A stretch of DNA of 64,000 nucleotides from Lophium mytilinum. Taxonomy: Eukaryota. Shown here piece after piece: positions 1-60,560 of the stretch (within the stretch, counting starts at the first letter, position 1; each line of letters begins with the position of its first letter). Location: positions 11,560-75,559 of the forward strand of contig MU004202.1 of NCBI GenBank assembly GCA_010093605.1. The letters run 5' to 3'. The position numbers were made by a program, and so were the translations under genes. Under the pieces are notes generated by a model that did no database searches, had not been told where the DNA came from, and saw only the letters and a list, made by a program, of their open reading frames with translations.

Positions 1-4
1 TCTT

Positions 5-455
5 ATATTATAGTAGTTCTATATAGTGCTAGTTAAGGTCTTATTAAGTATAAGGCTAGTATTATACTAAACTCTTTAAGTAACTTCTATTATTTAGAAT
101 CTTACCTCTATATATAACTGCTACTACTACTATAGCCTATATATTAATTCTAAGTTAATAGATTACTATTATATTATATATTATATATAATTCTTTATAT
201 ATTTCTTTTATACTATATTATAGTAGTTATATATAGTAGTAGTTATACTAATTCTTAAGTATAAGGCTATTCTTATACTAAACCCTTTAAGTAATTTCTA
301 TTCTATACCTGCGCACTCTATAGCCTCTCTATATCTATTTTAAGCTACTACTATAGCTTATAAATTAAATTAAAGTTAATAGAACGCTATTATATTATAT
401 TCTAAGTATTATTCTTTATATGTATACTCTATTTTATATTATAGTAGTTAAATAC
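5..455. repeat. RIP-degraded tandem repeat, ~210-220 bp unit, ~2 copies
   Basis: tattatagtagtt-like start recurs at ~5, ~215 and ~437; ttaagtataaggcta and ctactactatagc each occur twice about 210-220 bp apart. Confidence 0.6.
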
Positions 456-552
456 AGCAGTGTAAAGTTATACTACACGCAATTCTTAAAGGTTAATTTT
501 CTCTATATTAAACTTACTTCTCCCTATCTAACTCTAACTCTCTAGCCCCTAT

Positions 553-3500
553 AATAAGGCGCGTAGATTTATAAAACTTAATATTATAGCCGCCTTTAAC
601 GCTATTTAAATGTGTAATAGTAATAAGAAGTTTATAGTATTTCTTATAAGATATAGCTTATATAAATTTATAGTCTTGCTATTTAGCCTTTATAACACGC
701 CCTCTACCTTCTAAGCCTATATTAATAATATACTATTAAAGTACCTTAATAATTTTACTATAGTCTATATAAATAATATCTTAATATATATAGAGAAGAA
801 TAATAAAAATATATATATAGTATATATACGCAAGGTACTAGCTAAATTAAATAAAGTAGAACTATTTCTTAATATTAATAAGTATAAATTCTAGGTTATA
901 GAAGTTAAATACCTTAAAATAATTATTATAGCTAACGGAATTAAGATAGACCTAGATAAAATTAAGACTATACTTAAATAGCCTATACTATAGAAGCTAA
1001 AGAATATTTAAGCCTTTCTAGAATTCTATAACTTCTATAGACGCTTTATAGGCCTATTCTTTAATATATCTAGTCTATTAACTATACTAATATTACCTAA
1101 GGTTTATTTTATATTTCTATAGCATGCTAACTCTATATAATAGCGCTACTTCTAGGCTATTAAGAATGCCTTTCGCGACGCTCCTATTATTACTTATTTT
1201 AATTCTATATTAAAAATCTATATATACGCTAACTTATCTAATAAAGCTATAGAAGTAGTACTATTATAAATCTAGGCTAATAGTAAACTCTACCCTATAG
1301 TATTTATATTATATAAGATAACTCTATAGTAAATTAACTACTAGATATATAATAAGAAATTACTAGTAATTATACGCGCGTTTAAGAAATAGTAGCTAGA
1401 GCTACTAGGCTTATAAGACGGCTTTAAAGTATTTACTAATTATAAGAATCTTTAGTACTTTATAACTAGTAAGCAGCTTAATTACTGCTAGGCCCGCTAG
1501 GCTAAATTCCTATTTAAATTTAACTTTAAACTCTTCTAGTAAGCTAGTAAGAATAATACTATAGCTAATAGCCTTACACACCGCCCGGGTAATATCGCGG
1601 AGGATATTAGCAACGAGCGCGTTAAGATTAACTACTAGATAATTCTTAAGTCTAAATACCTAGAACTAGGTATAAATTATACTATTAATTTTACCGTAAT
1701 TCTTACTTATAATAAAGTTATCTACTTTATAATTAACCTAGCTATTACCTTCTACGCAATTAGTAAGTTAGAAGATATTAATAAGGTAAAGTATACTTAA
1801 TATCTAATAACTACTAAGAATATAGTTAATAGTAACTAAGGTTAGAAAGCTAAGCTTACTAAGCCGCGCGCTAATAAGGAATTAGGTACTTAGCACGCAG
1901 CATAGTAGAATAGAGGCAAGTTATTAAAAGACTCTCTAGATATAAGTAAAGCTATTCTAGATAATATCTATATTAAATAGTAGATAGACCTAATTATATA
2001 AGTAATTATTATAGCTAAGAAGAATAGAGTATACTACCTTCTATACGCGCTCTATTAGAAGTATAAGCTCTAGCTAGAACTAGGTAACTACTATATTATA
2101 GGGGGCTTAGTCTATATATATAATTAACTATATATCTCTATAGATAAGAGGCTATATATAAGAGCTATTTAGTATATATATAATCTAAGATCTATAGACT
2201 ATAGTAGTACTACCTCTACCTATTTATATATTACCCGCTTTTATTTCTAGCTAGATATAACCTATAATATAGACTATTATATTAGTACCTATATAATATA
2301 TAAGAAAATAAAGTATATTTATATAGGTAAATATAGGCTTCTTAAACCTCTCTCTATAGTAGACTAATACTAGATAAATATTATAGTTAATTTTATTACC
2401 TCTCTACTAATCTATATATATTATAGCCGGAACTATTAGTATATTATAGTTATATATAATAGGCTTTTATATAAAAAGAAGTTTATTACGCTAGACTCTA
2501 TAGAACTAGCTAATATAGCCTAGGCCTTTATTAAATAGATCTAGCAGGAAGAAGAATACCCGCGTAGTATAATTACTAACTAAGAAACCTAATAGATATT
2601 ATATTTCTAGAAACACCTCTATAAGTAACTTAAAACTAGCCTAAAGCTATCTACTACCTTTTATCTAGAGACTAATAGCCTTACTAAGAGTATAAACCTA
2701 GCCCTTAAGTAGTACCTCTAAGTATATATTAACTATAAATAAGATAACTAGGCTAATTTACTTCTAATTACTAAATTTAAGGTAAACGCTAATATTAACT
2801 CTTTAATAAAGGTCGCTCTATTTCTAGTAATAAAGGGCTATATCTCTTAATTAGGCGTTAAGCTAGCTAAGAACTATAATAGAAATAGTTCTATATAATA
2901 GCTATAGTAATAGGCTAATAAACTAATTAATAAACTTAATAGCTTCTAAAAATAGTATTATAAAGAGCTATAATAGGCTTAGGCAAAATAAAAAGAGTAC
3001 GCTAACGCCTATTAGTAACTAGCACCTAAGCTCTAAAAAGGTAATATAGTTATACTAGATTACTGCTTTATTAAAATATAGCGCCTAAATAAGTTACTTA
3101 ACTATAAGCACCTAGGCCTATACTATATTACTAAATATATTAAGAACTACGCCTATAGGCTTAAACTTCTAGAGTATATAAAGATCTTTCTAGTCTTCTA
3201 TCTATAGCTACTCTATTATATAGATAATACCCGTTCTATAAAAGAATAAACCTAGAAGCTACTAGGGCTAGTACTTATTAATAAAGAAAAATATAATTAA
3301 TATAAGGTTAGATAAATTATTACTATATAATATAATAAGAGACGCTATAATTACTAAAACCCTATAAAGGTATAAGGGTTTCTATAATATAAGGCCCTAT
3401 ACCTAGAATATAATATCTAGAACTAAAACCTACTATAGCAAGACTAGAATAAGTTTAATAATAGCCTCTACCTAGTAGCTAACTAGTACTATAAATATAC

Positions 3501-3560
3501 TAGTAAGCCGCCTTATCTAACTTATATATAACTAGCTAACTAGAAGCCGCTTCTTACCTT
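553..3560 (+). mobile_element. RIP-inactivated Ty3/Gypsy (chromovirus) pol: RT-RNaseH-integrase-chromodomain, 5'-truncated
   Basis: Manual translation gives KARRFIKLNIIAAFN...LLFSLYNTPSTF*AYINNIL...VYINNILIY (RIP form of FTKLD..AF / PFGLxNAPSTFQ / YMDD). Also RNase H NY*IYNKKLL, TNYKNL, R*AR*A; integrase GLLKPL, VNFITSL, TNSLTKS; chromodomain-like L*YKALY...*N*NLL* at ~3.3-3.5 kb. Domain order RT-RH-IN is Gypsy. Confidence 0.92.
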
Positions 3561-3992
3561 AATAAGACTATAATATTACTAAGCTACGCCTTATACTAAA
3601 GCTATAACCTAGCCGCTAGTAGCTAAGTTAATAATAATAGGCTCTTTTATTAAGAACTCCTAAGCTTAGATAAAGAGAAGGCTCTACTGCGCGCACTAAT
3701 AGTAGCTAGGTAAGTTACTTAGCTTACTAATAGTTATAGTTCTTTATATAGAACGCGTGCAACCTCTATAGTATATCTACTTAACTCTATAGTATATCTA
3801 CTTAACTTAGTAGCCTTACTATTTTACTTAGTATAGTAGCCTTACTATAGAAAAAGTTTAGTCTTTCTATTCTCTTTAAATCTATAGTTTCTTTTACCTA
3901 TAGACTTTTCTTTTCTCTTATCTATTATTCTATAGCCTTTCTATTTTATATAGAAGAATAGATAGCTATTAAAGAACTATAGATAGTTCTTT

Positions 3993-4206
3993 AAGGGGGG
4001 GGGAGATATAATAGCTATATTCTACTCTCCGCGTAGGCGTATAGCTTGCGCGCTATTATATAAGTAGGCTATTATATAACTACTATTAGTCTATGCGCCC
4101 TAGCTAAACTATAACTTTAGAGCTAGCGCCGCCCTAGCTTCTTATAGATTCTTTCTAGTTATAATTAATAACCTATTTTCTATAACACCCCTTTAGTTCT
4201 ATAATA
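3993..4206 (+). mobile_element. Polypurine tract plus probable 3' LTR of the Gypsy element
   Basis: AAGGGGGGGGGAG at 3993-4005 directly followed by tataatag...ctataata, interpretable as RIP-mutated TG...CA termini. Confidence 0.6.
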
Positions 4207-4680
4207 ATAACTAATACTATAGAAGCTATATAATTTAATTACTAGACTAGTAGTTTAATTAATTTATAAAGAAGGCCTAACTATAGATATATATAATAAT
4301 TAAATATAATATAATAGTATAGACTATTATAATTACTTAGTAGTAGAATAGTAGCTATAAAGACTATATAGCTTCTTATAGCTCTATTATAGCTAGCTCT
4401 AGTTTAAATAAATAAAGCTACTTATAGTAATACTATATATAGTAATACTATATATAGTAATACTATAATAGTAATACTACTATACTAAAATAGTAAGGCT
4501 ATAGCAGGCTATATAAAAATAGAAAAAATAAATAATTATCTATAAATTAATTTATTTTCTTTATTTACTTATAGCTAAAATATAATTAGATACTTTATTT
4601 AATAGATATTTAAGCGTTTATAGATACTCTAGTATAGAAAGAACTCTCTCTTATAAAAGCTTTAATTAGAAGGCTTCTTT

Positions 4681-4865
4681 AGAGGGGGATAATATATTAT
4701 AGCTATATAATTATATATAATATATAACTAGAAATTATAAAATAAAGGCTCTATAAAATGGATATATATTACTTCGCCCTTTAGATTATTATAATATCTA
4801 TTCTAGAAACCCTTTCTTTCTTATATTTATCTTTTATTAATATTAATACTATTTAATTTAATAAT
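4681..4865 (+). mobile_element. Second PPT plus LTR remnant (another LTR element)
   Basis: AGAGGGGGA purine tract followed by tattatagc; right boundary approximate. Confidence 0.4.
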
Positions 4866-4919
4866 TCTAATATTTTAACCTTAAGCTCTAATATAGATTT
4901 TTCTACTACTAAGTACTTT

Positions 4920-6450
4920 TATTATTATTTAGTACTATTACTACGCTAATAGCTATATAAAATAAGCTATTTCTAGTAGTTATAACTTAATATAGCCTAG
5001 TTTTATAAGTATACTTAATATTAGCTAGTAGTTACTATTAAATTTTATTATTTCTATTACTACTATTTATTTTTCTATTATAACTATTTACTTTTCTATT
5101 ACTACTAGTATTACTACTATTTAATTTTCTTTCTTTTTTCTAGTATTACTACTAGTAGCTATATAAAATAAACTAATTCTACTAGTTTTAGCTTATTATA
5201 GCTTAGTTTTACTAGTATACTTAATATTAGCTAGTATTTACTATTAAATCTTATTATATCTATTACTACTATTTACTTTTCTATTACTACTAGTATTACT
5301 ACTAGTTAAATTTTTTCTTTTTCTTAGTATTACTACTAGTAGTTACTTATTATAGTATAGTTTTATTAGTAAGCCTAGTATTAGCTTATTATTACTATTA
5401 ACTTTTATTATTTCTATTACTACTAGTTATTTTTTCTACTATTTAGGTATATTACTAAGCTAGTAGCTATATAAAATAAGCTAATTATACTAGTTTTAGC
5501 TTATTAAAGCTTAGTTTTATTAGTATACTTAATATTAACTAGTATTTACTATTAGGTTATATTATTTCTATTACTACTAGTATAACTACTATTAAAAGTA
5601 TTACTACTAGTAGTAGTAGTATTATTAGTTAGTATTATATTAATTATAGTAATAATTTAATAGTAGAGGTCTACTATATAAAAGTTTAGCTAAAAGAAGT
5701 TACTTCTAAGTATAGGTAAAGTCTTCTAAGCGCGTTCTAAATACTTACTAGGCTATAATAGATTTAGTAGCTTTAAGCCCGTAGAGCCCGCGGTCGCTAC
5801 CTAAAATAGGGTCGAGTACTTCTTAGGTATAGGAAAGGAGCTTTCCCCGCGTTAGCGGCATAACCTTCGCCCGGCTAAGTCGGTCCAGCATATAAATGCA
5901 TTATAGGAGAAGACCTTTAAGCTTTATAAACCCTTACGCTTATCCCACAATTAATGTAAGGCGACAGGATGGAAACTAAGACCGATTTAACGTCGGCATA
6001 ACAGCCTAGCCGGAAAATAAACTTGGCCTCGTTACCCTATAAACCTAATACAGGAAATACTAACAAGAGCCAAGAGGCGCATCTAAGAGCCTTTAGGAGT
6101 AACGAAGTGTAGCACGGTTTTCGGGAGTGCTACGTTAGAGACGAACGGAAGCATGGAACGTCTAAGAAGAGGTCGCGACACAAATCTAACCTCGCAGTTA
6201 GTGGGAATCCCCTTCGCGAGCTCGCGGTGCTCTTGCGACGTAGACAACGCGATAAGCGCTCCCTTATACCTTCGGGTTCTTCGTAGACGTTTCATAATTA
6301 TATTATAGGCTACGGAGCGCTTTCTAAATCCCCAGGCCCTGCATAGTCGCCCCATAGCGTAGGCAGAAGCTTAGAGACGAGATGTAGAATATACGCAATT
6401 GCATCCGCAACACAGGAACAACTGTACGGTCGCGGCTTAGTACATTAGAA
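4920..6450 (-). pseudogene. RIP-inactivated gene with Gln/His-rich tandem-repeat C-terminus
   Basis: Minus frame reads YMLDRLSRAKVMPLTRGKLLSYT*EVLDPILGSDRGLYGLKATK... into runs such as TAG TAG TAA TAC TAG TAG TAA TAG AAA (= QQQHQQQQK if CA->TA is reversed). Stops read in this frame (5466-5950) are TAA/TAG. Repeat unit starts at 4951, 5157 and 5465. Confidence 0.6.
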
Positions 6451-8456: not shown

Positions 8457-9175
8457 CCCTTTTTAGTAGGCGTACACTCCCCTCTGGTCCAATCTTTTAA
8501 TTGGTCAGGAGGGCTCGGATCACTGCTCCGGCGCTTAATTCTAACGCGCATCTGTACAGCCTCTCCATTATATCGTGTATTCTTTCTATTTCCTGTCGAG
8601 TATATGGGCTATTATACTACTACCTACATGCCTCCAAGCCTATAAGCATGCCAAAACTATCAAAATCGCCCCCTAATACGGCTTAGTTACATTATTCCTA
8701 GCCCTCCTCCATCGCCACCGCCTCCATCGCCGCTTAATCCATGATAAAGCTGAGGAAAAGCGCTATCCTGCCGCTGTACTGCCTTCTTCCATGGTGCTCC
8801 AAAGAGTTGTAGGCCCGTGGCCGTGGCGGCTGTATTGTGGTGGAGGATAAGGATATAAGGATTAATTATTTGTAGCCACGCCGCATTTGGAGAGTCGGAG
8901 GCCTCGGAAGGCCCCTCCGGACCAATCACAAGGTTAGAAGAGAGGGGAGTGTACGTCTACCAAGAAGGGGGGGTACGTCTACTGAAAAGGGGGGGTATAA
9001 ATACCAGCGCCCTTGGCCAGTGTTCAATTAATTGGTGGATATCACCCCCGATTGTCGAGATTAGGCGATTCTCGCCGAGATTCCTCGATTGGTGTTTGGG
9101 GAGTCACAGATCCGAGCGCTCCGGGTCAATCAGAAGATCAGACGTAAGGGGGGGTGCATCTACCAAAGTCGGGGA
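8457..9175. repeat. Three copies of a ~60-bp unit (one inverted, two direct) plus extra GGGG..TAC sub-motifs
   Basis: 8466-8485 gtaggcgtacactcccctct is the reverse complement of 8941-8960 at 19/20. 8905-8965 and 9110-9170 share ctccgg..caatca.aag.t.aga....agggg.gtg..tctacc. 8488-8521 matches the reverse complement of 9109-9142 at about 26/34. Confidence 0.75.
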
Positions 9176-9686
9176 GTGTGAAACTACGATAGGGGATGTA
9201 GAAATACTCGCCCCCAAAATAAACTCATTTATATACCCCGACTCAAAGCGCTACGCCACAATTATAAACAACTCAGTGACTGGGCCTCGGGGATTTACTC
9301 GGCCTGTGTACGGCTCCGTCAGCAAGGACGATGCTGAGATAAGGTGATGAGAGGAAGTGGAGATCCCACGCGACGTCACGTGGATCCGGCTACAAAGGGG
9401 TGAATGCCCTCCTTAAGCTTCTCCAGCGGCCCGGTATCTGGGAAAAAGGACACCTCACGGTGACGCGCCCGAGGTCCATCCAGCAGAGTGAACACCTACC
9501 TATACACCTCCGTCCCATTCACTATCCTCATCATTCTCTACCCCTTCGATGTCTGCTACCGCGTCACTAATGTGCTTTCTCCTTAACGTCCTCCCCTATT
9601 TAAACTCCACTCCATTTGCAAATCTCTATCACACACCCACCCTCCCACACCTCCACACCCTCAAACCCACCAATCTCAAAATCAAA

Positions 9687-15935: not shown

Positions 15936-17164
15936 TCAATAATGCTTAACGCCAGCAAGCTTCAACAACTTATCGCTTCTCTCCGGTAAGGTCAGCGGCT
16001 GTTCCCGGTCCCTGGGATCCCTCGTACCGTCCTCTAAGAACGTCTTCGTGTCTCTTGGTACGATATTATCATGAGGCCAATGTGTCGTTCCGCTATAGCT
16101 CTCAAACGCCTGCGCCTTGAGCGCCAGCTGCTCTGGACTCGCTAGTCTCGCGGGAGTATACGCGGAATAGATGACTGTCCGTATCTGCTCGCTCTTCTCC
16201 GACGGCTCCGCGCCGTAGTGAACAGTGCGGCTGTCCCATAGTATCAGATCGCCGACCTCTGCGCACACCTTTAGAGGCGCGATTCCGCGGGCTCGGAACC
16301 ACGCAAGTTGGTCTTCATCGAACAAATATCTATCCAAGGGCTGCCAGGTAGATTCATCGGTGTTGGTGTCGAAAAACTCGTCGTTCAGAGCGTGCGAGCC
16401 GGGGTATACGACTAAGCCTCCATCTTCTGGTCCAGAAGGCGAGAGGTTTAGGATACCCTGCACGCAATGAAGGCCGCGTCTCAGAGGACTTTGGTCGATG
16501 TGCTCCCATGCCGGCTTTCGGGGGACGTCTTTGCGGTTCGGAAGGGTGATGTTGAGGCTGTCGAAGCTGGCTAGCAGGTTCTCGGTGCCCCATAGCAATG
16601 CAAACGCGTCCAGTACACCTGGCTCCATTCTCGCATCCCACATGAACTTCTCGTGGGCGACGCAGTAAGAGTGAAATGTGTTAATTTTGCTTTGGACAGG
16701 TAGGTTCTGCTTGATCCAGGTATCGGGGTTGTTCAAGTCAAGCTCAGTGCTGAACGACTTCAGCCAGGCATATGCGTCCTCCTGGTATTGTATCGCTCGC
16801 TCTTTTGGGATGGCTCCCTTTACTACGGCGAACCCATTCTTCTGCAAGTCGGCTCGCCAGTCGCTGTACTTTGGCCTGATTGTGAAATTAGCCGACATAT
16901 ACACGAATACGAACGACATGGAAGTGTGCATAATCGGTAGACTCGGTTGGTGGCCTCAAGCAGTGGCAGATAGGTGTACAAGAGACTAAATCGCTCTGAA
17001 ATATTGAGGAAATACATTGAAGCACCACGGGCAGTGGTAGACCAGTGTGAACAGATATATACAAGGCGTGGCGGAGAAAGAGCAGCGACTTACGATACGA
17101 CGTTTGCGATGGGCGCAGCAACGAGTTTGGGTGAGCTTTGAGGAGTGATTGCGCTGGGTGCCAT
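15936..17164 (-). CDS. PhyH-like Fe(II)/2-oxoglutarate dioxygenase
   Basis: HIDQS ... GGLVVYPGSH ... GDLILWDSRTVHY (HxD...H facial triad). Exon 1 MAPSAITPQSSPKLVAAPIANVVS splices in frame through intron 16876-17093 (GTAAGT...CTAAT..CAG). Confidence 0.88.
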
Positions 17165-17573
17165 GCTGAGGTATGGGTTGCGATTTGATCGTGTTTGCGT
17201 GAAAGAAGATGTTGAACTCGCTTGTTATGTAGTATAGCGGGGTATATAGATCCGGGAACATATCGCGTAGGATGTATCTGCTACTTGGCAAGGCGTCTGC
17301 AAATGGTGTGACCGGGAATATTATTCGGCCAGTCAAAATAACGTTCGAACGAGCTTAATCCGGTGGGTCGTGTTAGGGTCATCGGATGCAGCTTAGCTGG
17401 AATTGCTGAGTTCGCTAGACCTGTCAGAGAATGCCGTCGGGTGGCAGCACCCGTTTTTGCGACGGAGTGGCGGGCTCCACGATCTCATCCAGCGATAAGA
17501 TCACCTCTGGGGAAAAAATTGGTAATTCTTACAGAAACGAACGCTGAGCATGCGCTCGGAGCCTTCCGACTCC

Positions 17574-19942
17574 CTAGAACAGCAGAAGACCTGGATTTTT
17601 CGTTTGCATTAGCACTTCCCAATGAGCAGGTTCGCCGCTAATATGTCTTCGCCATATTTCTTCCATTATCTTGTGGGCGCTCGAAATGTTACCAAATCCG
17701 ATAGTGTTTTCCATAATGTTGATCCGGTATTCCAATGTCAGCCGATTGGCTTTGGTAACACTTCCAACACCAGCCATGAAAAGTGGAAATAGTATATGCG
17801 TTTCCATTTGCGAGCCTGGCCGTATCAAAGAAAGTGCAGAAATAATGTTCTCGGTGGGCCCTTTTGTGCGAGCCTCGTCGTTGACAGAACCATGGATAGC
17901 CTGGCGAAGCCGTAGAATAGAAGCCCATTGAATGGCGAAAGCAGCTGCCCTCACTTCCGTCGCATCTATATGCGGTGCTAGATTTTCGGGTGGACTCCAG
18001 CTTTGTAGCAGGAGTTCGATAGCCTCAGCTTCAAAGTGGAGGGCCTGCTCTTTGACTACATCAGGAAAGTTGAGGGCGGCTCGTTGAGCTACTAGTCGAT
18101 TTATGCGAGGAAGTAACTGGTAAAGCTCTCCAGAAATACCAACCAAAGGGTGTATAGTAAGCCCATCTCGTCGTTTAGAGGACTCCCAGAGGTCTAATGC
18201 CGTTCCGCAAATCCGCGGCACATTGGTTGATGTGACAGAAGCGATACCTACAGGTGCGGCTGAGTTTTAGAAATGGCCTAAGAAGAGGGTCGTCATACGT
18301 ACAGCAAAGGTAATTATACAGCTCCACGAGAAAGTTGAACGGTGTTCCAACGACCTCGAAATCGATGTGTGATAACAGAGCATGAGCCCCGTGGAGATAC
18401 AGCAGCCACTTCCTCGAGTCCCCTTCACAGATCTGTAGCACCAGATTAGATTCAAGAGCATTTTGTAAGATAAAGCTGTCTAAATCAGCCCGGGTTCACT
18501 TCGGCAATCTTCCTTCCCCATCTCCAGACGTCCTGCAGCATGATAAGATCATGACCACAGGGATCGCACCAAGAGGCACGATCCCGACGGCTCTGATAAA
18601 ACACAAAGCAGAGTCCGGATTTCCGGCTCAGTCCGTGCAGTCATTGGCAACCTCTTTGTGAGAGTTTAATATCACCCAGGGATGCCCTAACATGATCGCG
18701 GTAGGCACACGGATCGCATGATATCATAAGATCTGAACGGTCTTGATAAACATCACGTAGAGTCCAGAAGCCCGATCCAGCCCGTGCTAAACTTAACTTT
18801 CTCAGTGCAAGATTTTGCAACACTAGGAAGTCCGCCAAGGTGATATCATGACTAGCACAACGATCGCACGGATGTCTTATCCGAAGTGGTTCTATCACAG
18901 GTCGAAGAGTATACAAAATTGTAAGACGTACCTCTAGTAAGCACAGCAGTAGGGTCCCTGCGAGGGCCCACACTACAGTGTCTTTTTGGTCAAGCTCTGC
19001 TTTAAGGCCCTCTAAGGCTCTCGTTCTATGAACAAGTAGATTTCGCGTAAAGTCGGGATACACTTTGGAGAGATGGCAAGCCGATAAGGCAGCCAAAGCG
19101 TTTCGAACAACACGATTTTCCAACGCCATGGGTACGATGAAGCGAAGGAAGGGGTTGTACTCGTCACTAACCACTACCAGAGAGCGTGATACGGATTGGA
19201 GAAAGTGATTCAGCAGGTGCCTCTCGCCTATCGTCCACTTAGACAGGGCTTCGGGCGTTATTCCCGTAAGATTGCCGAGAGCGGTAGCTGGTAGGGACGC
19301 AAAGCTAGCATCAGGGGGTTCCTCGTCGCTAGCACGCTCGTGCGGCAACACCTTCAAGGCGCTGCTATTCGCCAAAGTGCCCTTCTTCAATTCGGAAGTG
19401 TAATCCTCCTCTATGACCGTAATCCAGTCAAACAGCGAAGATGGCGGCTCATCCATACCCGTGGTGTGTCCACGATTAGCCGCATGATTCCCGTTCGGTA
19501 CAGGGGTTGGACTCAAACTGTCCACGTGACTTCGAGACGGCGTACTCAATTGACCAGGCGAGGCAGAAGGCGACGCTCCGTATCCCGACGGCGAACGCGA
19601 CGGAGTCGTCTTAAAGGCGCACACCAAGCTCAATCTCTTACAATCTCCACAAATCGGCCGCGCTTCGTCACACTTCTTCCGCCTATTTCGACAGCTATCA
19701 CAGCCTCCCGACGACCTAGAGTGCTGAGCCCTAAATCTAGTCCTTTTGGCGGCAGAGGCAGTGGGTCGTTGTAGGCCTTGTGGGGCATCATCGTCTTGTT
19801 GTGTCGTAAATGCGGCCCGTTCGTCGTGGTTCCCGAGGCTGCATGCCAGAGAGAGCCGCTTGCAACGCGCACAGGGTGCTTCCTTAGAGCAAACGGTCTT
19901 GATAGCTGCGCAGGTCTGGCAGGCGGTCTTCTTGCGGCCCAT
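17574..19942 (-). CDS. Fungal transcription factor with two Zn(II)2Cys6 clusters and a C-terminal Fungal_trans_2-like domain
   Basis: CQTCAAIKTVCSKEAPCARCKRLSLAC and CDSCRNRRKKCDEARPICGDCKRLSLVC; NPFLRFIVPMA, LLCLLE|ICEGDSRKW..YLHGA, FPLFMAG; introns 18433-18931 and ~18248-18301. Confidence 0.9.
18480..18900. repeat. ~150-bp tandem repeat (about 3 units) inside TF intron
   Basis: caca..gatcgca at 18556, 18706 and 18856 (exact 150 spacing); tgataaa, agagtcc and cag.ccgtgc also recur about 150 bp apart. Confidence 0.8.
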
Positions 19943-40597: not shown

Positions 40598-41242
40598 TGT
40601 AGATTGCAGGCCGTAGCATCTGATATTGGGTTGGGACGCTACATTATGTACATGGAACGACCCTGTTTGCTACTAGCATTGATTGCTGTGGGTGATTGTT
40701 ATAATCCAACAGCCCCTCTCAAGCGCTTACAGCAAGAAATAATAGTGGGAAACCTCCTTGATGGAGAGTATCTAGTGATGAAAGATAGAAGGGAGCGTAT
40801 GCTGATGAGGCCAGCAAGGACCGTGTGATGGCTGAGAGAAGCGGCATCCTGTGAAGATGATGATGATAATGGAGGAGAGTATTGTGGTGGTGAGTGAGAG
40901 AATCGTCCGGTATCGATGATGGCTGAGAACCTGTGGTGATGGCTAACATCTTGTGGTGATGGCTGGTATCCGTATGGCGATGGCTGTGCATCTAGGAATG
41001 CATCGAAGAAGGCATCTAGGAAAGCATGTTGATGATGGTGGACGTGAGAGTCTGCTAGTAACACCCTGCAGGAACGGGCGGACGACCTAACTTAGGCGGC
41101 AGCGTTGAATGAAGCCGGGCTCATTACCTGTAGATTGCAGGCCGTAGCATCTAATATTGGGTTGGGACGCTACATTATGTACATGGAACGACCCTGTTTG
41201 CTACTAGCATTGATTGCTGTGGGTGATTGTTATAATCCAACA
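40598..41242 (-). mobile_element. Non-autonomous miniature LTR retrotransposon (TRIM, Copia-type priming), 645 bp
   Basis: 114-bp LTRs at 40598-40711 and 41129-41242 (TG...CA, 113/114 identical); TSD AACTT at 40593-40597 and 41243-41247. Minus-strand PBS GGTAATGAGCCC directly after one LTR and PPT GAGAGGGGC directly before the other. Confidence 0.95.
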
Positions 41243-55343: not shown

Positions 55344-57590
55344 ATGAAGGCCATGGCCTCAACCCGTCGCCAGCCCGCTCTGCAGATTTTTCAGGATCCC
55401 GTCTCACCAAGCCACAATGAAGTCGCTGGCTTCGAAGCACAACTCCTCTCCGCCCTGGGACCCATCACCGACGTGTCATTCGACCACCACACCCTCCTGA
55501 ACCCGCCAGACTCGCAGGAGAACCTCCCCTCACCGCGCAAAACGAACCGCGTCTCCAGCTCTCCACCTCCACACGCCCTCTCCGAGGCTTCGCTCAACGC
55601 CATTTCCATCCCACCTCCCTCCGAAGGCGTCTTCGCCACCGACTCCCCAATGAAGCGTGTTCCTCGCCCACAGCAGAAGCAGGCAAAGCTGCTTGCCAAG
55701 GATCCAAACGCCCTTTTCACTACCTTTCCGTCCGCCCAGTTCGATAAGGAGAACGCGTACTCAGCCTTGCCCACTGTACCATACTCAGATCCCATCTACG
55801 GCCAGAAGGGAGCCGGAAAGCGCACCTTGATGGACGCTGCTCCTCTCCGCGACCGCAAGGACAAGAAGCCAAAGACTACCGATGACGACATCAGTCCACT
55901 TCCCGATTGGGATCAGATGCCCGATGTTGAAGACGATGGCGGTAAGCCACCATTCAGCTACGCTAACCTCATCGGTATGGCCATCCTACGATCTCCACAA
56001 CGTCGATTGACCCTCGCCCAAATCTACAAGTGGATCTCGGACAACTTCGTCTACTACCGCCAACCCGAGACAGGATGGCAGAACAGCATCAGGCATAACC
56101 TCAGCCTGAGCAAGACCTTCCTTAAGCAGGAACGACCAAAGGATGATCCCGGAAAGGGCAACTACTGGTACATCAAGCCTGGATGTGAGAAGGCCTATCA
56201 CAAGGCGAAGTCATCGCGTCGTATCACCAATCCCGACGGCTTCGTCAACTCGAGTGGGAACCTGCCACGCCCTTCCACCTCCTCTGGAGAGCGTTCGTTT
56301 GCTGTTGAGTCTAGCGCTGTAAAGAATGTCGACTCGGCCAAATTCCCGGATGAGACAGAGCTGTCATCAGACGCCACCATCCCTTGCTCGGACCCAGCTG
56401 CACACGACGGCCAGCAGGTCGAGCACCATATGCCACCTCCATCGCGCACTCAAATTCCCTCGTCTCCACCGCCCGCGGATATTCACTCCTCCCCGCCTCC
56501 GCCCATCACGCGTTCTATGCGCGAAGGCACGCCCCCACGCGTGCCTCGCTACCCCACCCAGAGCCGTTCTGGCGGACGGAAGCGCAAGTTCGGTGGACTA
56601 GGCGACAGCGGCTACTACTCCTCCATTGAGTCGTCTGCTATGAAAGGCAACCCACTGGGCGCGCTCTTGACTTCTGAGGCTGACATCGACCGTCCCGTCA
56701 TCAAGCGAGGACGCGCTGAGGAGGAAATTGCTCGTATTCGTGGATCGTCATACGAGAGCCCTTCGAAGACGCGTTCTTTCCTGAAGCCACCAACCACTTC
56801 CGGAATCCCGTCTTCTTCGCCCTTCCGGGGGTTCGGCGCGAATGTTGAGGATCCTCTCACTCCTGCTGTCATCTTCAAGCGACCAACCCTCCCACCGCAA
56901 TCCGTCTCTCCCAACACCAACCTTCGCAACCACCGCAACCGCATCCGTGAGATGCTTGGTGGCTCGCCAGACCAAACCTTGGGCATTATGATCGACCCTC
57001 CTTTCTCCTATCAAAATCCGTATAGCCCAGCTGTCCAGATCCCGAACGAAGAAAGCTTCAACCTTCACGAAAATGGTTTCCATGACAACTTTGACGTCTT
57101 CGCCGAACTCACCAATCAGGACTCCCCGTCGAGGCCATCAGCAAAACGACCACGTCTGGAACGTGCGGCAACCACATCTGGCATTCTCGCCGACATCACT
57201 GGCACCAAGTCGAACGCTCGCCCGAGCACTTTGACACCAGGCAGCTGGAAATCTCCCTTCCTGAACTTCCCTGCTCTTCAATCACCACGCTTCTCCCTCT
57301 CGCCCGTGAAGGCACCCACTTCAAACCCGCTCCAGCTGCCCGAGTCCAATCCGAACGACCTCCCAGAGCTGAACTACAGCCCTTTCAAGTTCGACATGCC
57401 CCAGGGCGAGGACCTCACCCAGCACGACGACTTCTTCGGCGTCAACATCCCCAGCGACGAATCCGACGAACCGAGCTATGACATCCTGAAAGCCTACCCT
57501 CGCATCGGCGCTGCCACGGTCGCACCGAACGGCTCCCCATCCAAGCCAACACGCGCTCCATTTGCTCGCAGCACCACGACGCGCTTCTAG
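55344..57590 (+). CDS. sep1: Forkhead transcription factor (Sep1/Hcm1-like)
   Basis: [58 protein letters not shown]; single 748-aa ORF with many SP/TP sites; no FHA domain seen. Confidence 0.9.
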
Positions 57591-58240
57591 TTGGATACCC
57601 GACGCGTTGGATACACGCGAAATCACCCTTACTTTCTCCACACACTTTTGAAATGTTCTGGCTAAGCGCTTGAAACCTGAACGATGAAACGACTATGATA
57701 CCCATGACTGACCTCCTTGGGTGACACTCCGGCGCCGGCCTGTCTCTTTCTTCTTTCATTGGGAGCTTTGGACCTACTTTTCTTTTTCCTCTTTCTTTTT
57801 CTTCTGCGGCTTTGCTTCTTTTACTTTGCGTTACGAGTGGTTGGGTAGCACGCTAATTGGGTCATGAAATGTGACGCCGTGGTGGTACCTGGTTATTATG
57901 GTTGCTTGTGTTTACATCTGCGTCTGGGTTGTACATAACTTTAATGAATTCCCTAGGATCTGGGGGCATGGGGTGCCTGCTTTTACGGCTTTTTGTTCAC
58001 GGCTTGGGGGGGTATACGTGATGCTAAGGGACTGGTTCTGCTTGATGGAACGGCTAGATGAATGAAGCAAAGTACAGTTATTGAAGATCTTGCGCATGTG
58101 ATGGTTATGGGGGTTGTTCTGATTGATGGAATTGATGGGATGTGAATGAGGCGCTGTATGCTTGTTGACGCCACGTGGTAATCGCACGTGATGTAACTTC
58201 TTGTGCTTGTAGTTCCTAAGCTGTAAATCGGAGTGCGCAG

Positions 58241-58890
58241 ATGAGCGTGCTGGGTGTGTGTATGGTATGCTATGGCACTCCTTGGTGTTGCACCTTTTCA
58301 ACTTGTGGATGTCATGTTCCAAAGGCCGTGGACTAGACCTTCTAGTTTGCTTATTGAGAATTGCTTAGGCAGATCGAATCGCACGGGAGAGCTAAGCTCG
58401 CTGGGGTGTGTATAGCATAGTAGGACACCCCCGGAGGTATTCGATTTTCGATCTATGGATGTTTTGATCTAGAGACCGTGAATTAGACCACGCGACTTGA
58501 TCGCTGTGGAAGTGATAGGAGCTTCAAATTATGGTAAGGAGTGAGTCTGCTAGGGGTGTCTCCAGCATATTAGGACACCCCTGGAGGTATTGGTGTTTGG
58601 ATTCGTGGATGTCATATTCTAGGGGTCGTAAATTAGGCCCTATGACTTGAAAGTTGCAGAAACGATTGGTTCTGGACATCGAGGTAGCAAGTCGTGTCCG
58701 CTGGGGGTATGTATAGCAGATCATGGCACCCTTGGGCGCAATGTTTTTTGAGTTCGTGGATGTCATGTTCTAGAGGTCGTGGATCAGCCGCATGACTTCA
58801 AAGCTACGGAAACGGCTAATCCTATATATCGAGCTATATTGACGAGTCTATTGGGAGTGTAGACACTATATTGGCGTACCCCTAGAGGTA
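58241..58890. repeat. Degenerate tandem array of ~150-bp units (about 4.3 copies)
   Basis: tggatgt at 58306, 58456, 58606 and 58757 (periods 150, 150, 151); taggacaccc at 58421 and 58571; gactt at 58494, 58644 and 58794. Confidence 0.9.
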
Positions 58891-59035
58891 AGGAGGAGAA
58901 GAAGAAGGAGAAGAAGAAGAAGAAGAAGAAGAAGAAGGAGGAGAAGAAGGAGAAGAAGGAGAAGAAGGAGAAGAAGGAGAAGAAGGAGAAGAAGGAGAAG
59001 AAGGAGAAGAAGGAGAAGAAGGAGAAGAAGGAGAA
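58891..59035 (+). repeat. Compound purine microsatellite (GAA)n/(GGAGAAGAA)n
   Basis: About 145 nt of pure purine triplet/9-mer repeats. Confidence 0.95.
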
Positions 59036-60560
59036 ATAGAGACGGAAGAGGAACCAGTGAGTACAACTCCTATTAACTGCAGCTTGAGCATCGGCTGATA
59101 TCCATGTAGCCTGCCCCCGCCCCAAATCGCCGCAAGGCGAACGACCACGACCACGACCACGGTGATGACGATGACGACGACGACGACAACACCAAGGTCG
59201 AGAAGAAGGCAGACGAGGGCATGGTGGAGTGGATGGACGAGCAGAAGAGGCTCGAGATTGCGGCCTATCGTAAGTAGTAAATACGCAGTTGATGTGACTT
59301 GTACTAACACATGTGCCGTAAAAGGCCCATCCAGCGCAAGCGAGGACCCGGTTGCCCAATGGTAGGATCAGCAGTCGGACGAGGTAGAGTTATGTGGTTG
59401 CATATCAGAAGGCACTATGGAGCTGTGAATGGAGCTGTAGAGGCGAGTACGTTGGGGGGGATATCGGGGTGAAGGAGGCGGTCATGGGGATTTGACGGGA
59501 TGTAGGTTGAGAATCGGGAGGCACTGTATGGGTGAATAGATATTGCTTGATAGGGAACATGGTCTTGAGAGTGAGATAGCTTTGTAGGGAGGGCCCTGGT
59601 TAGTAAGTAGTGGAGAAGGAAAAGAAAACACTGGGTCGAAGTGGGATGCCGATTACATCGTGTTAGGTTATTGGGGGGTTTATGGGGGATGGATTATAGA
59701 GCAGCGGAAAGCCTCTTTTATGGTAGATATAATCTGCGAAACTATTAAGACTTCAAAATCATGACTACCTAAGTCGCAATTCAACCTTACCCTTAATTTC
59801 CTTAGGCGACTTTTGGTATAATCGAGCCCTCTGTGTCCTCAGGCGACCGCTGGTTCAAAAGGCGCGTGGTTTCTTGCTTTTGGTTTTTAGACTGGGTGAT
59901 ATGTTTTGCTTTTACGGTTGTAGTCCTACCGCATGCAGTGAAAGGATGGACGCGGAAATCTGGAAGAAGAGTGTGTATTGACTGATTTGATGGGTTGTTT
60001 TGGATTCTACCTGACTATCTAATAGCTCGGGGTCCAGTCTTGCTCACTCGACGCCACTGTTAGGAGAATCCCGCATGGTAGACAGCTGGTCAGTCAAGCG
60101 CTAGTCAAATCTGCACTGTAATGGCCTTTAAAGCTTGTTGACAGTCTGAATATGAATGAGTATGCTTATGCCAAGAAAACAGAATGATCAGATCCCGTTG
60201 GTATCGAGTGAGTGACGACACACCTTTTTCCCAGATTCTTCGAGCTTGAAATCAGATCCAAGATCGTGAAGCTAAGTCCAGCATAACGCAGCCGTATCCC
60301 AGAATCAAAGCTAGAAAAGGCCAATGATTTGAACGCAGGCGTGGGTATCCTTTTCCCTGCGGCAATCTGTAGTCGTACAGCCGATGCCGTTGCCTCAGGG
60401 TATAACAGTTCGTCCTCCACAGATGACTTATTCCTCTGTCAAGATGGCCCAATCAGCCAGCCCGTTCCCTCATTTCCAGCCAATAAGATAGGGGGTTAGT
60501 CTTTCTGTTGCGTTCCACTCGGATAGTATCGTGGTGTTGATGCCAGTAGAAGACGGCGGC

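Follow-up and report, generated by a model that had tools for sequence, protein, structure and literature searches.

Diverged 150-bp tandem units in a spliced intron of a fungal transcription factor gene and a probably related intergenic array

The gene, its long first intron and its surroundings

The window, defined here as the whole stretch of DNA analysed (64,000 nucleotides), was assigned to a member of the Mytilinidiales (Dothideomycetes): the forkhead protein that it encodes shows 95% identity to its counterpart in Mytilinidion resinicola, and the next named match stands at 66%. A minus-strand gene with its ATG at 19942 encodes two Zn2Cys6 clusters and a Fungal_trans_2 domain, giving a protein of 604 aa once spliced. 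The parts of the gene are as follows.

18932..19942, minus: exon 1 of the Zn2Cys6 transcription factor gene, 337 codons, with two Zn_clus stretches and the start of Fungal_trans_2
18433..18931, minus: intron 1, 499 nt, GT...AG, phase 0, spliced; transcript contigs of X1 and X2 skip all 499 nt
18641..18643, minus: in-frame stop if intron 1 is retained; 433-aa product
18433..18484, minus: non-repeat 3′ end of intron 1, with a branch-like CTAAT at 18449 and the acceptor
18303..18432, minus: exon 2
18248..18302, minus: intron 2, 55 nt, spliced
17574..18247, minus: exon 3, to the stop codon

Intron 1 is a real intron that is removed by splicing. It starts with GTACGT and ends with AG, and transcript contigs from two runs (X1 and X2) join position 18432 to 18932; intron 2 is skipped as well. 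The X1 contigs match the window at 99% or better, with a depth of 55, and may share its source, while X2 derives from another organism, about 95% identical. Neither run is recorded as RNA; both were judged to be transcript-derived because both introns are absent from their contigs. An extra coding exon in this interval, the finding that the first-pass annotation had set against its own reading, is seen in no transcript contig of X1 or X2, which skip the intron exactly. No internal GTRAGT or GTAYGT donor occurs in intron 1 and its only two branch-like words both lie close to the 3′ end, so that clean splicing would be expected. The same annotation had put most introns of the window at about 50–65 nt, which held for intron 2, the sole one checked. 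It had also predicted that retention of intron 1 would stop translation at 18641 and leave both DNA-binding clusters with a truncated C-terminus. The in-frame stop lies at 18643–18641, and the 433-aa product would contain two Zn_clus domains and only profile positions 1–105 of the 384 of Fungal_trans_2.

Between 10262 and 28676, the factor lies amid genes for an MFS and a sugar transporter, a PhyH dioxygenase, an esterase, two FAD-binding monooxygenase-like proteins, an epimerase-like protein and a hydrolase, a neighbourhood that is likely a catabolic or secondary-metabolism cluster. The spliced X1 contig (3449 nt) is about 1.3 kb longer than the stretch compared and, judging from these lengths, would enter the same-strand PhyH-like dioxygenase gene at 15936–17300; a contig covering two genes does not prove a single transcript. 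Further repeats were observed elsewhere in the window. Positions 1–5700 form a RIP-mutated, AT-rich block with tandem repeats of its own, of 221 bp (4–461) and 154 bp (5207–5581). A direct repeat of 114 nt, 99% identical, occurs at 40598–40711 and 41129–41242, 531 nt apart; it encloses short G/A-rich repeats and may represent either a recent duplication or a small unit of LTR-like type. Three related intergenic elements of about 60 nt lie at 8457–8521, 8913–9001 and 9109–9182, one of them inverted relative to the other two (74–83% complementary).

Periodic units in intron 1 and in the array near 58 kb

Intron 1 is periodic. The word CACA..GATCGCA stands at 18556, 18706 and 18856, as had been reported, and nowhere else in the window. 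Banded self-alignment of the intron scored 47 at a lag of 140–160, compared to 15.2 ± 2.7 (maximum 26) in 150 shuffles, and 32 at a lag of 290–310. By this measure the intron tile ranked fourth of 230, and the three tiles above it all came from the array near 58 kb. The period is thus as first described, but the intron does not consist of three whole 150-bp units; it holds 2.6–2.9 decayed ones. The firm repeat covers 386 nt (18870–18485, 2.6 periods), and 427 nt (18911–18485, 2.85 periods) with a weak head included.

18824..18911, minus: repeat unit I1, partial; firm from 18870, with a weak head at 18911–18871
18676..18823, minus: repeat unit I2, closest to the array, 39–46% identical to its four full units
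18524..18675, minus: repeat unit I3, 59% identical to I2 and 37–40% to the four full array units
18485..18523, minus: start of a fourth, shortened unit

The head (18925–18871) is not significant on its own (307 of 2000 shuffles), although a profile trained on it extends to 18911. In the tail (18523–18485), a fourth unit begins (5 of 2000 shuffles); a purine-rich 3′ end common to both arrays, considered as a separate feature, was dropped for this reason. The last 52 nt of the intron are not repeat (719 of 2000 shuffles). After gapped projection, the intronic units are 52–62% identical, and the ungapped identity at lag 150 is 46–47 of 150 positions (about 31%). TRF did not report the intronic units, which illustrates how an old repeat family can escape a standard tandem-repeat search.

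The second array is intergenic, between the 3′ end of the forkhead gene (stop at 57590) and a microsatellite.

58161..58284, plus: decayed first array unit, with several gaps upstream of 58245
58285..58885, plus: four full array units of 150, 150, 151 and 150 bp, 48–66% identical to each other
58894..59035, plus: (AGGAGAAGA)n microsatellite, 142 bp, directly after the last array unit

Each unit carries a short, better-kept box. In the array, the box makes up the 3′ side of an inverted repeat, whose arms (GGGGTGT ... ACACCCC) are separated by 15 nt in two units, at 58251–58284 and at the same place in each unit; 85% of its cells pair, with covariation at chance. Directly after the box, all four full units have GT or GC, and exactly 50 nt later YAG, the size of a fungal intron. 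These spans, read by eye from the alignment, are 58287–58336, 58437–58486, 58587–58636 and 58738–58787 (plus); they contain no CTRAY branch word between GT/GC and YAG, and the YAG is absent from the intronic units. Following the array, 58894–59420 (plus) contains the microsatellite and a short reading frame of acidic composition, interrupted by an intron-like break; the frame has no visible in-frame start codon and is possibly an orphan gene or a relic.

Kinship between the two arrays had been proposed from a 16/19 match of 18676–18694 (minus) to 58566–58584, which is exact as given. The reported difference in spacing between two shared words, 90 in the intron and 92 in the array, corresponds to a 2-nt gap in the family alignment, and the plus strand of the array does correspond to the pre-mRNA sense of the gene, so that the arrays face opposite ways on the chromosome. 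Profile tests upheld the kinship, but the link is much weaker than 16/19 suggests, with 33–47% identity per unit pair.

A plain alignment score within the shuffled distribution had been named in advance as grounds for rejecting the kinship. Such a score was obtained with the first scoring scheme, a lenient local alignment (68 against 58 ± 8 in shuffles, z 1.2, not significant), but not with the stricter and profile tests. An nhmmer search with the array HMM returned the intron as its best outside match, but over 25 nt only and with an E value of 0.069; the intron HMM found no match in the array. Transition-aware scoring produced an almost ungapped, in-phase alignment of 188 nt, joining 18846–18659 (minus) to 58262–58450 (plus), with 30.3 bits (0 of 2000 shuffles) and 22.8 bits even with the core shuffled. 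The outcome depends on the scoring: with 11 of the 20 parameter sets, none of 200 shuffles and none of 222 genomic tiles reached the observed score, and with the four sets that lack transition weighting, 3–39 of 200 shuffles did. The best unrelated tiles follow closely (26.6 and 25.9 bits against 29.2 for the intron/array match), and among free pairwise alignments only one of the 12 cross pairs, I2 with one array unit, was clearly significant.

Nulls that keep the period reached the observed value in 0–2 of 1000 cases across 24 sets. Plain identity pointed the same way. In the register of the best alignment, all 15 cross pairs are 33–47% identical; the held-out unit I3, which lies almost wholly outside that alignment, shows 38% identity to three other array units, where the 149 shifted registers give 25 ± 3%. 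With strand, shift and gap place optimised, the best profile identity was 0.394, again in this register, compared to 0.333 ± 0.009; none of 1200 permutations of columns or blocks equalled it. Homology between the two arrays extends over most of the unit, with nine of ten bins above 0.30 and the box as the best-kept bin (0.56), and they differ by a single 2-nt gap at about 40% identity. The consensus sequences agree in 47 of 87 columns (54%), above the unit-to-unit mean of 39%, as expected under common descent. Within the window, the intron repeat and the array are each other's best match. On the basis of these comparisons, the intronic units and the array are very probably of common descent.

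The family is known from these two loci only. Within the window, a combined profile revealed no further copy: its best unrelated score was 24.6, over a background of 14.6 ± 2.4, and weak profile matches near 32.7–33.3, 39.3–39.6 and 59.4 kb did not stand out with it. An exact pattern of the array core matched neither metagenome nor viral contigs. The arrays share no flanks, all eight flank comparisons being at chance (72–460 of 500).

Age of the intron site, a candidate scar and signs of function

The intron site is old: an intron at the same codon was found in homologues of 36–65% identity (27 of the 48 homologues aligned), and many of those predicted from raw contigs read through into it. 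Its length was 46–76 nt in 11 of the 48, where the read-through reached exon 2 in some frame; the method detects short introns only, so that these are common at the site and the absence of long ones is not implied. The other homologues comprised 14 annotated as spliced, 20 that stop earlier and 3 without an anchor. Among the 20, the script had mis-anchored 4, and reading by eye gave intron lengths of 71 and 95 nt for two more. A mean intron length of 87 bp is given for the related Cenococcum geophilum in the consulted part of PMC12910237. Among metagenome contigs, 435 stretches matched the homologous gene loci by pattern and none was confirmed. The proposal that the repeat accounts for the inflation of the intron agrees with these lengths, since 72–113 nt are left without the repeat and homologous introns measure 46–76 nt where they can be measured.

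A candidate target-site duplication brackets the repeat.

18919..18926, minus: left copy of the 8-bp direct repeat TCTTACAA
18463..18470, minus: right copy of TCTTACAA, with 448 nt (about three monomers) between the copies

The bracketing was found post hoc; it was reproduced in 115–281 of 5000 shuffles and in 15 of 1148 genomic controls, and no matching direct repeat surrounds the array near 58 kb. As a candidate target duplication, TCTTACAA would imply an original intron of 43 nt and, if real, a block copied in with its units already diverged. An insertion dating back as far as the divergence of the units would hardly be expected to have kept the 8-mer intact. A long-range stem between the two ends of the intron, through an 8-bp inverted repeat (18919–18912 / 18467–18460), was rejected at a pair probability of about 0.001.

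The repeat is neither decayed coding sequence nor RIP-mutated. A decayed 50-aa coding repeat was rejected: all six frames contain stops and the codon positions show no bias, both of which hold for the array, and the intronic copy is spliced out. RIP is recognised by an excess of C-to-T change, raised TpA and depleted CpA/TpG. The TpA/ApT and (CpA+TpG)/(ApC+GpT) indices are 0.65 and 1.27 in the intron and 0.92 and 1.11 in the array, compared to 1.76 and 0.09 in the RIP block at 1–5700, and transitions about equal transversions in the repeat. Searches of the repeats with Rfam and ARAGORN returned no family or tRNA, the best weak match being SCARNA7 (19.7 bits against a threshold of 65). The intron fold has a z score of −1.85, with 6 of 100 shuffles equally good; one of seven units folds at z < −2, and the covariation score, from four units only, was reached by 168 of 500 shuffles.

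Constraint is hinted at only by the length of the unit. Between neighbouring central array units there are 3 indels, compared to 5.9–10.4 expected in simulation, at 0.4–0.7 substitutions per site. At indel ratios of 0.03, 0.05 and 0.09, unit lengths that agree to within 1 nt arose in 16, 9 and 0 of 400 simulations; these ratios are assumed, and the only local estimate (window against X2, about 250 nt) gave 2 indels to 22 listed substitutions. Such a constant length is somewhat hard to obtain under neutral drift and leaves a modest chance of function.

Interpretation and comparison with known element classes

The reading that best accounts for these results, with a probability of roughly 0.68, is that the intronic units and the array near 58 kb are two short arrays of one old, non-coding tandem repeat family of about 150 bp (minisatellite or short-array satellite type), dispersed in euchromatin of the present fungal lineage, and that one block entered an existing short intron and was tolerated. 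The gene would already have had a short intron at this site, and a block of about three monomers would have entered between the donor and the branch site. Tolerance would follow because both splice signals are intact and the units contain no competing donor. The block may have come in a single step: 448 nt of monomers that had diverged beforehand would have been set into a 43-nt intron at a staggered break, with the 8-bp direct repeat as its trace; this is a tentative suggestion, and more doubtful than probable. Alternatively, a single monomer could have arrived and been duplicated in place. A repair-templated copy, reinsertion of a circle or a rolling-circle element since lost are candidate vehicles. 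The insert most likely has no selected function, and the intron repeat is most likely an ordinary tolerated insertion and not a new control switch.

Two alternatives concern the origin of the arrays. They might have arisen independently by local tandem duplication, with a likeness due to chance and a common G/T-rich composition. The failed plain alignment and nhmmer tests, the thin margin over unrelated tiles and cross identities of only 33–47% can all be read in this way; nevertheless, the permutations that never reached the observed profile identity (a plain-identity test), the consensus identity above the unit-to-unit mean, the equal period and the spread of the likeness over nine of ten bins make an independent origin very unlikely. 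The arrays might instead be the central tandem repeats of a decayed non-autonomous Helitron- or Helentron-type element, like Drosophila DINE-TR1, which carried them to both sites. Short arrays of units of about 150 bp, a better-kept part of about 30 bp and an adjacent microsatellite do recall DINE-TR1 as described in the consulted sections of PMC9957191 and PMC10048060. As printed, four of the eight box ends are CTGG or CTAG, and a fifth is truncated by one base to CTA, with the G just beyond the cut. The box of the array also supplies the 3′ arm of a hairpin. Helitron1 elements are characterised by 5′-TC, 3′-CTRR and a hairpin 10–12 nt before CTRR (PMC5148889, in part); here, no TC follows any box end and the hairpin abuts CTRR, for which reason this type was rejected. 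The 5′ arm of the hairpin is not kept in the intronic units. The Helitron2, Helentron or DINE type was rejected as well: no flanking blocks are shared in any of the eight comparisons, and the inverted-end test gave 198 of 500 for the intron and 18 of 500 for the array, although old termini could have decayed. A genuine direct repeat would also argue against a Helitron, since Helitrons are not known to make a target duplication. We regard such a carrier as highly improbable.

Two further alternatives give the unit or the intron a role. The 150-bp unit could be a selected cis-acting element, a nucleosome-sized spacer of fixed length with a candidate protein-binding box, in or behind transcription factor genes. 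The central array units with their few indels, the single 2-nt gap between arrays at about 40% identity, the box of about 15 bp ending in CCCTGG as the best-kept bin between arrays and the position of both loci beside transcription factor genes speak for it. However, the array edge unit and the intronic units carry several gaps, period-keeping arrays are those likely to be noticed, the indel ratio is assumed, the box varies at many positions and homologues function with short introns; on this evidence selection on the unit is unlikely. A broader proposal appears improbable, namely that Mytilinidiales carry undescribed, nucleosome-sized (150-bp) non-coding units that move as preformed multi-unit blocks, leave short target duplications, are selected for length even as sequence identity falls to about 40%, and provide phased platforms for protein binding or chromatin organisation within or behind transcription factor genes. 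Intron 1 could also act as a regulatory switch, its retention giving the 433-aa DNA-binding protein without the C-terminal domain, or message decay. The in-frame stop would permit this, and a 161-nt contig of depth 3 (18709–18869) is the sole intronic signal; it crosses neither splice site, and contigs cannot separate retention from pre-mRNA, lariat or DNA. Fungal splice variants are commonly retentions, for the most part with no indication of a function, and introns above 200 nt are ill-suited to intron definition, but retained fungal introns give little sign of frame-keeping (PMC2397502, in the portion consulted). The role that had been suggested for retention in this gene was not borne out: the dominant contig (depth 55) is fully spliced, and no contig crosses either splice site unspliced. 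The 96-aa read-through has no Pfam match and no likeness among the homologues, whose own read-throughs are unrelated and mostly short. A switch is thus scarcely to be expected.

Tolerated insertion of a tandem repeat into an old short intron, with splicing intact, would show clearly how one of the rare long introns of fungi comes about. Should the constant 150-bp length turn out to be selected, it would point to a fungal repeat class kept for its spacing and not for its sequence.

A literature search of incomplete coverage found no paper on a 150-bp repeat family in Mytilinidiales; supplementary repeat libraries (for instance that of PMC12910237) may hold it. DINE-TR1 repeats of Drosophila Helentrons resemble it in units of about 150 bp, short arrays and one better-kept segment, but conserved flanking blocks and Helitron termini are absent here (PMC9957191 and PMC6947457, as far as their consulted text describes the element); the likeness is one of layout, and no sequence likeness is claimed. 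Introner-like elements of Dothideomycetes share with this case the dothideomycete host, an unusually long intron and related sequence elsewhere (PMC3609843 and PMC4457414, both in part). Unlike them, as described there, the unit lies inside the intron without splice sites, the intron position is old, the related sequence is a tandem array between genes, and no near-identical copies occur in the window. An introner-like element was rejected, with the repeat confined to 18911–18485, the last 52 nt outside it and no internal donor; as a new intron gain it was rejected on the same-codon introns of the homologues.

Two classes that come closer have already been described, at least in the consulted parts of their sources: repeats inserted into regular fungal introns (PMC3609843) and dispersed short arrays (PMC10048060). 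The former likewise lie within an existing intron, which they lengthen without being introns themselves; they are near-identical and of high copy number, whereas the present units are tandem and heavily diverged. As in satellites and minisatellites, the monomers here run head to tail, are non-coding and form homologous arrays at two oppositely oriented loci. Those of PMC10048060 are similar: their monomers are non-coding and arranged head to tail, with fewer than ten to an array, and the arrays occur at multiple sites and near genes. Its examples are animals and plants, and its text names no fungi, whereas the present host is a fungus; here, moreover, monomers are 48–66% alike within arrays and about 40% between them, two loci are involved, and no long array or carrier was seen.
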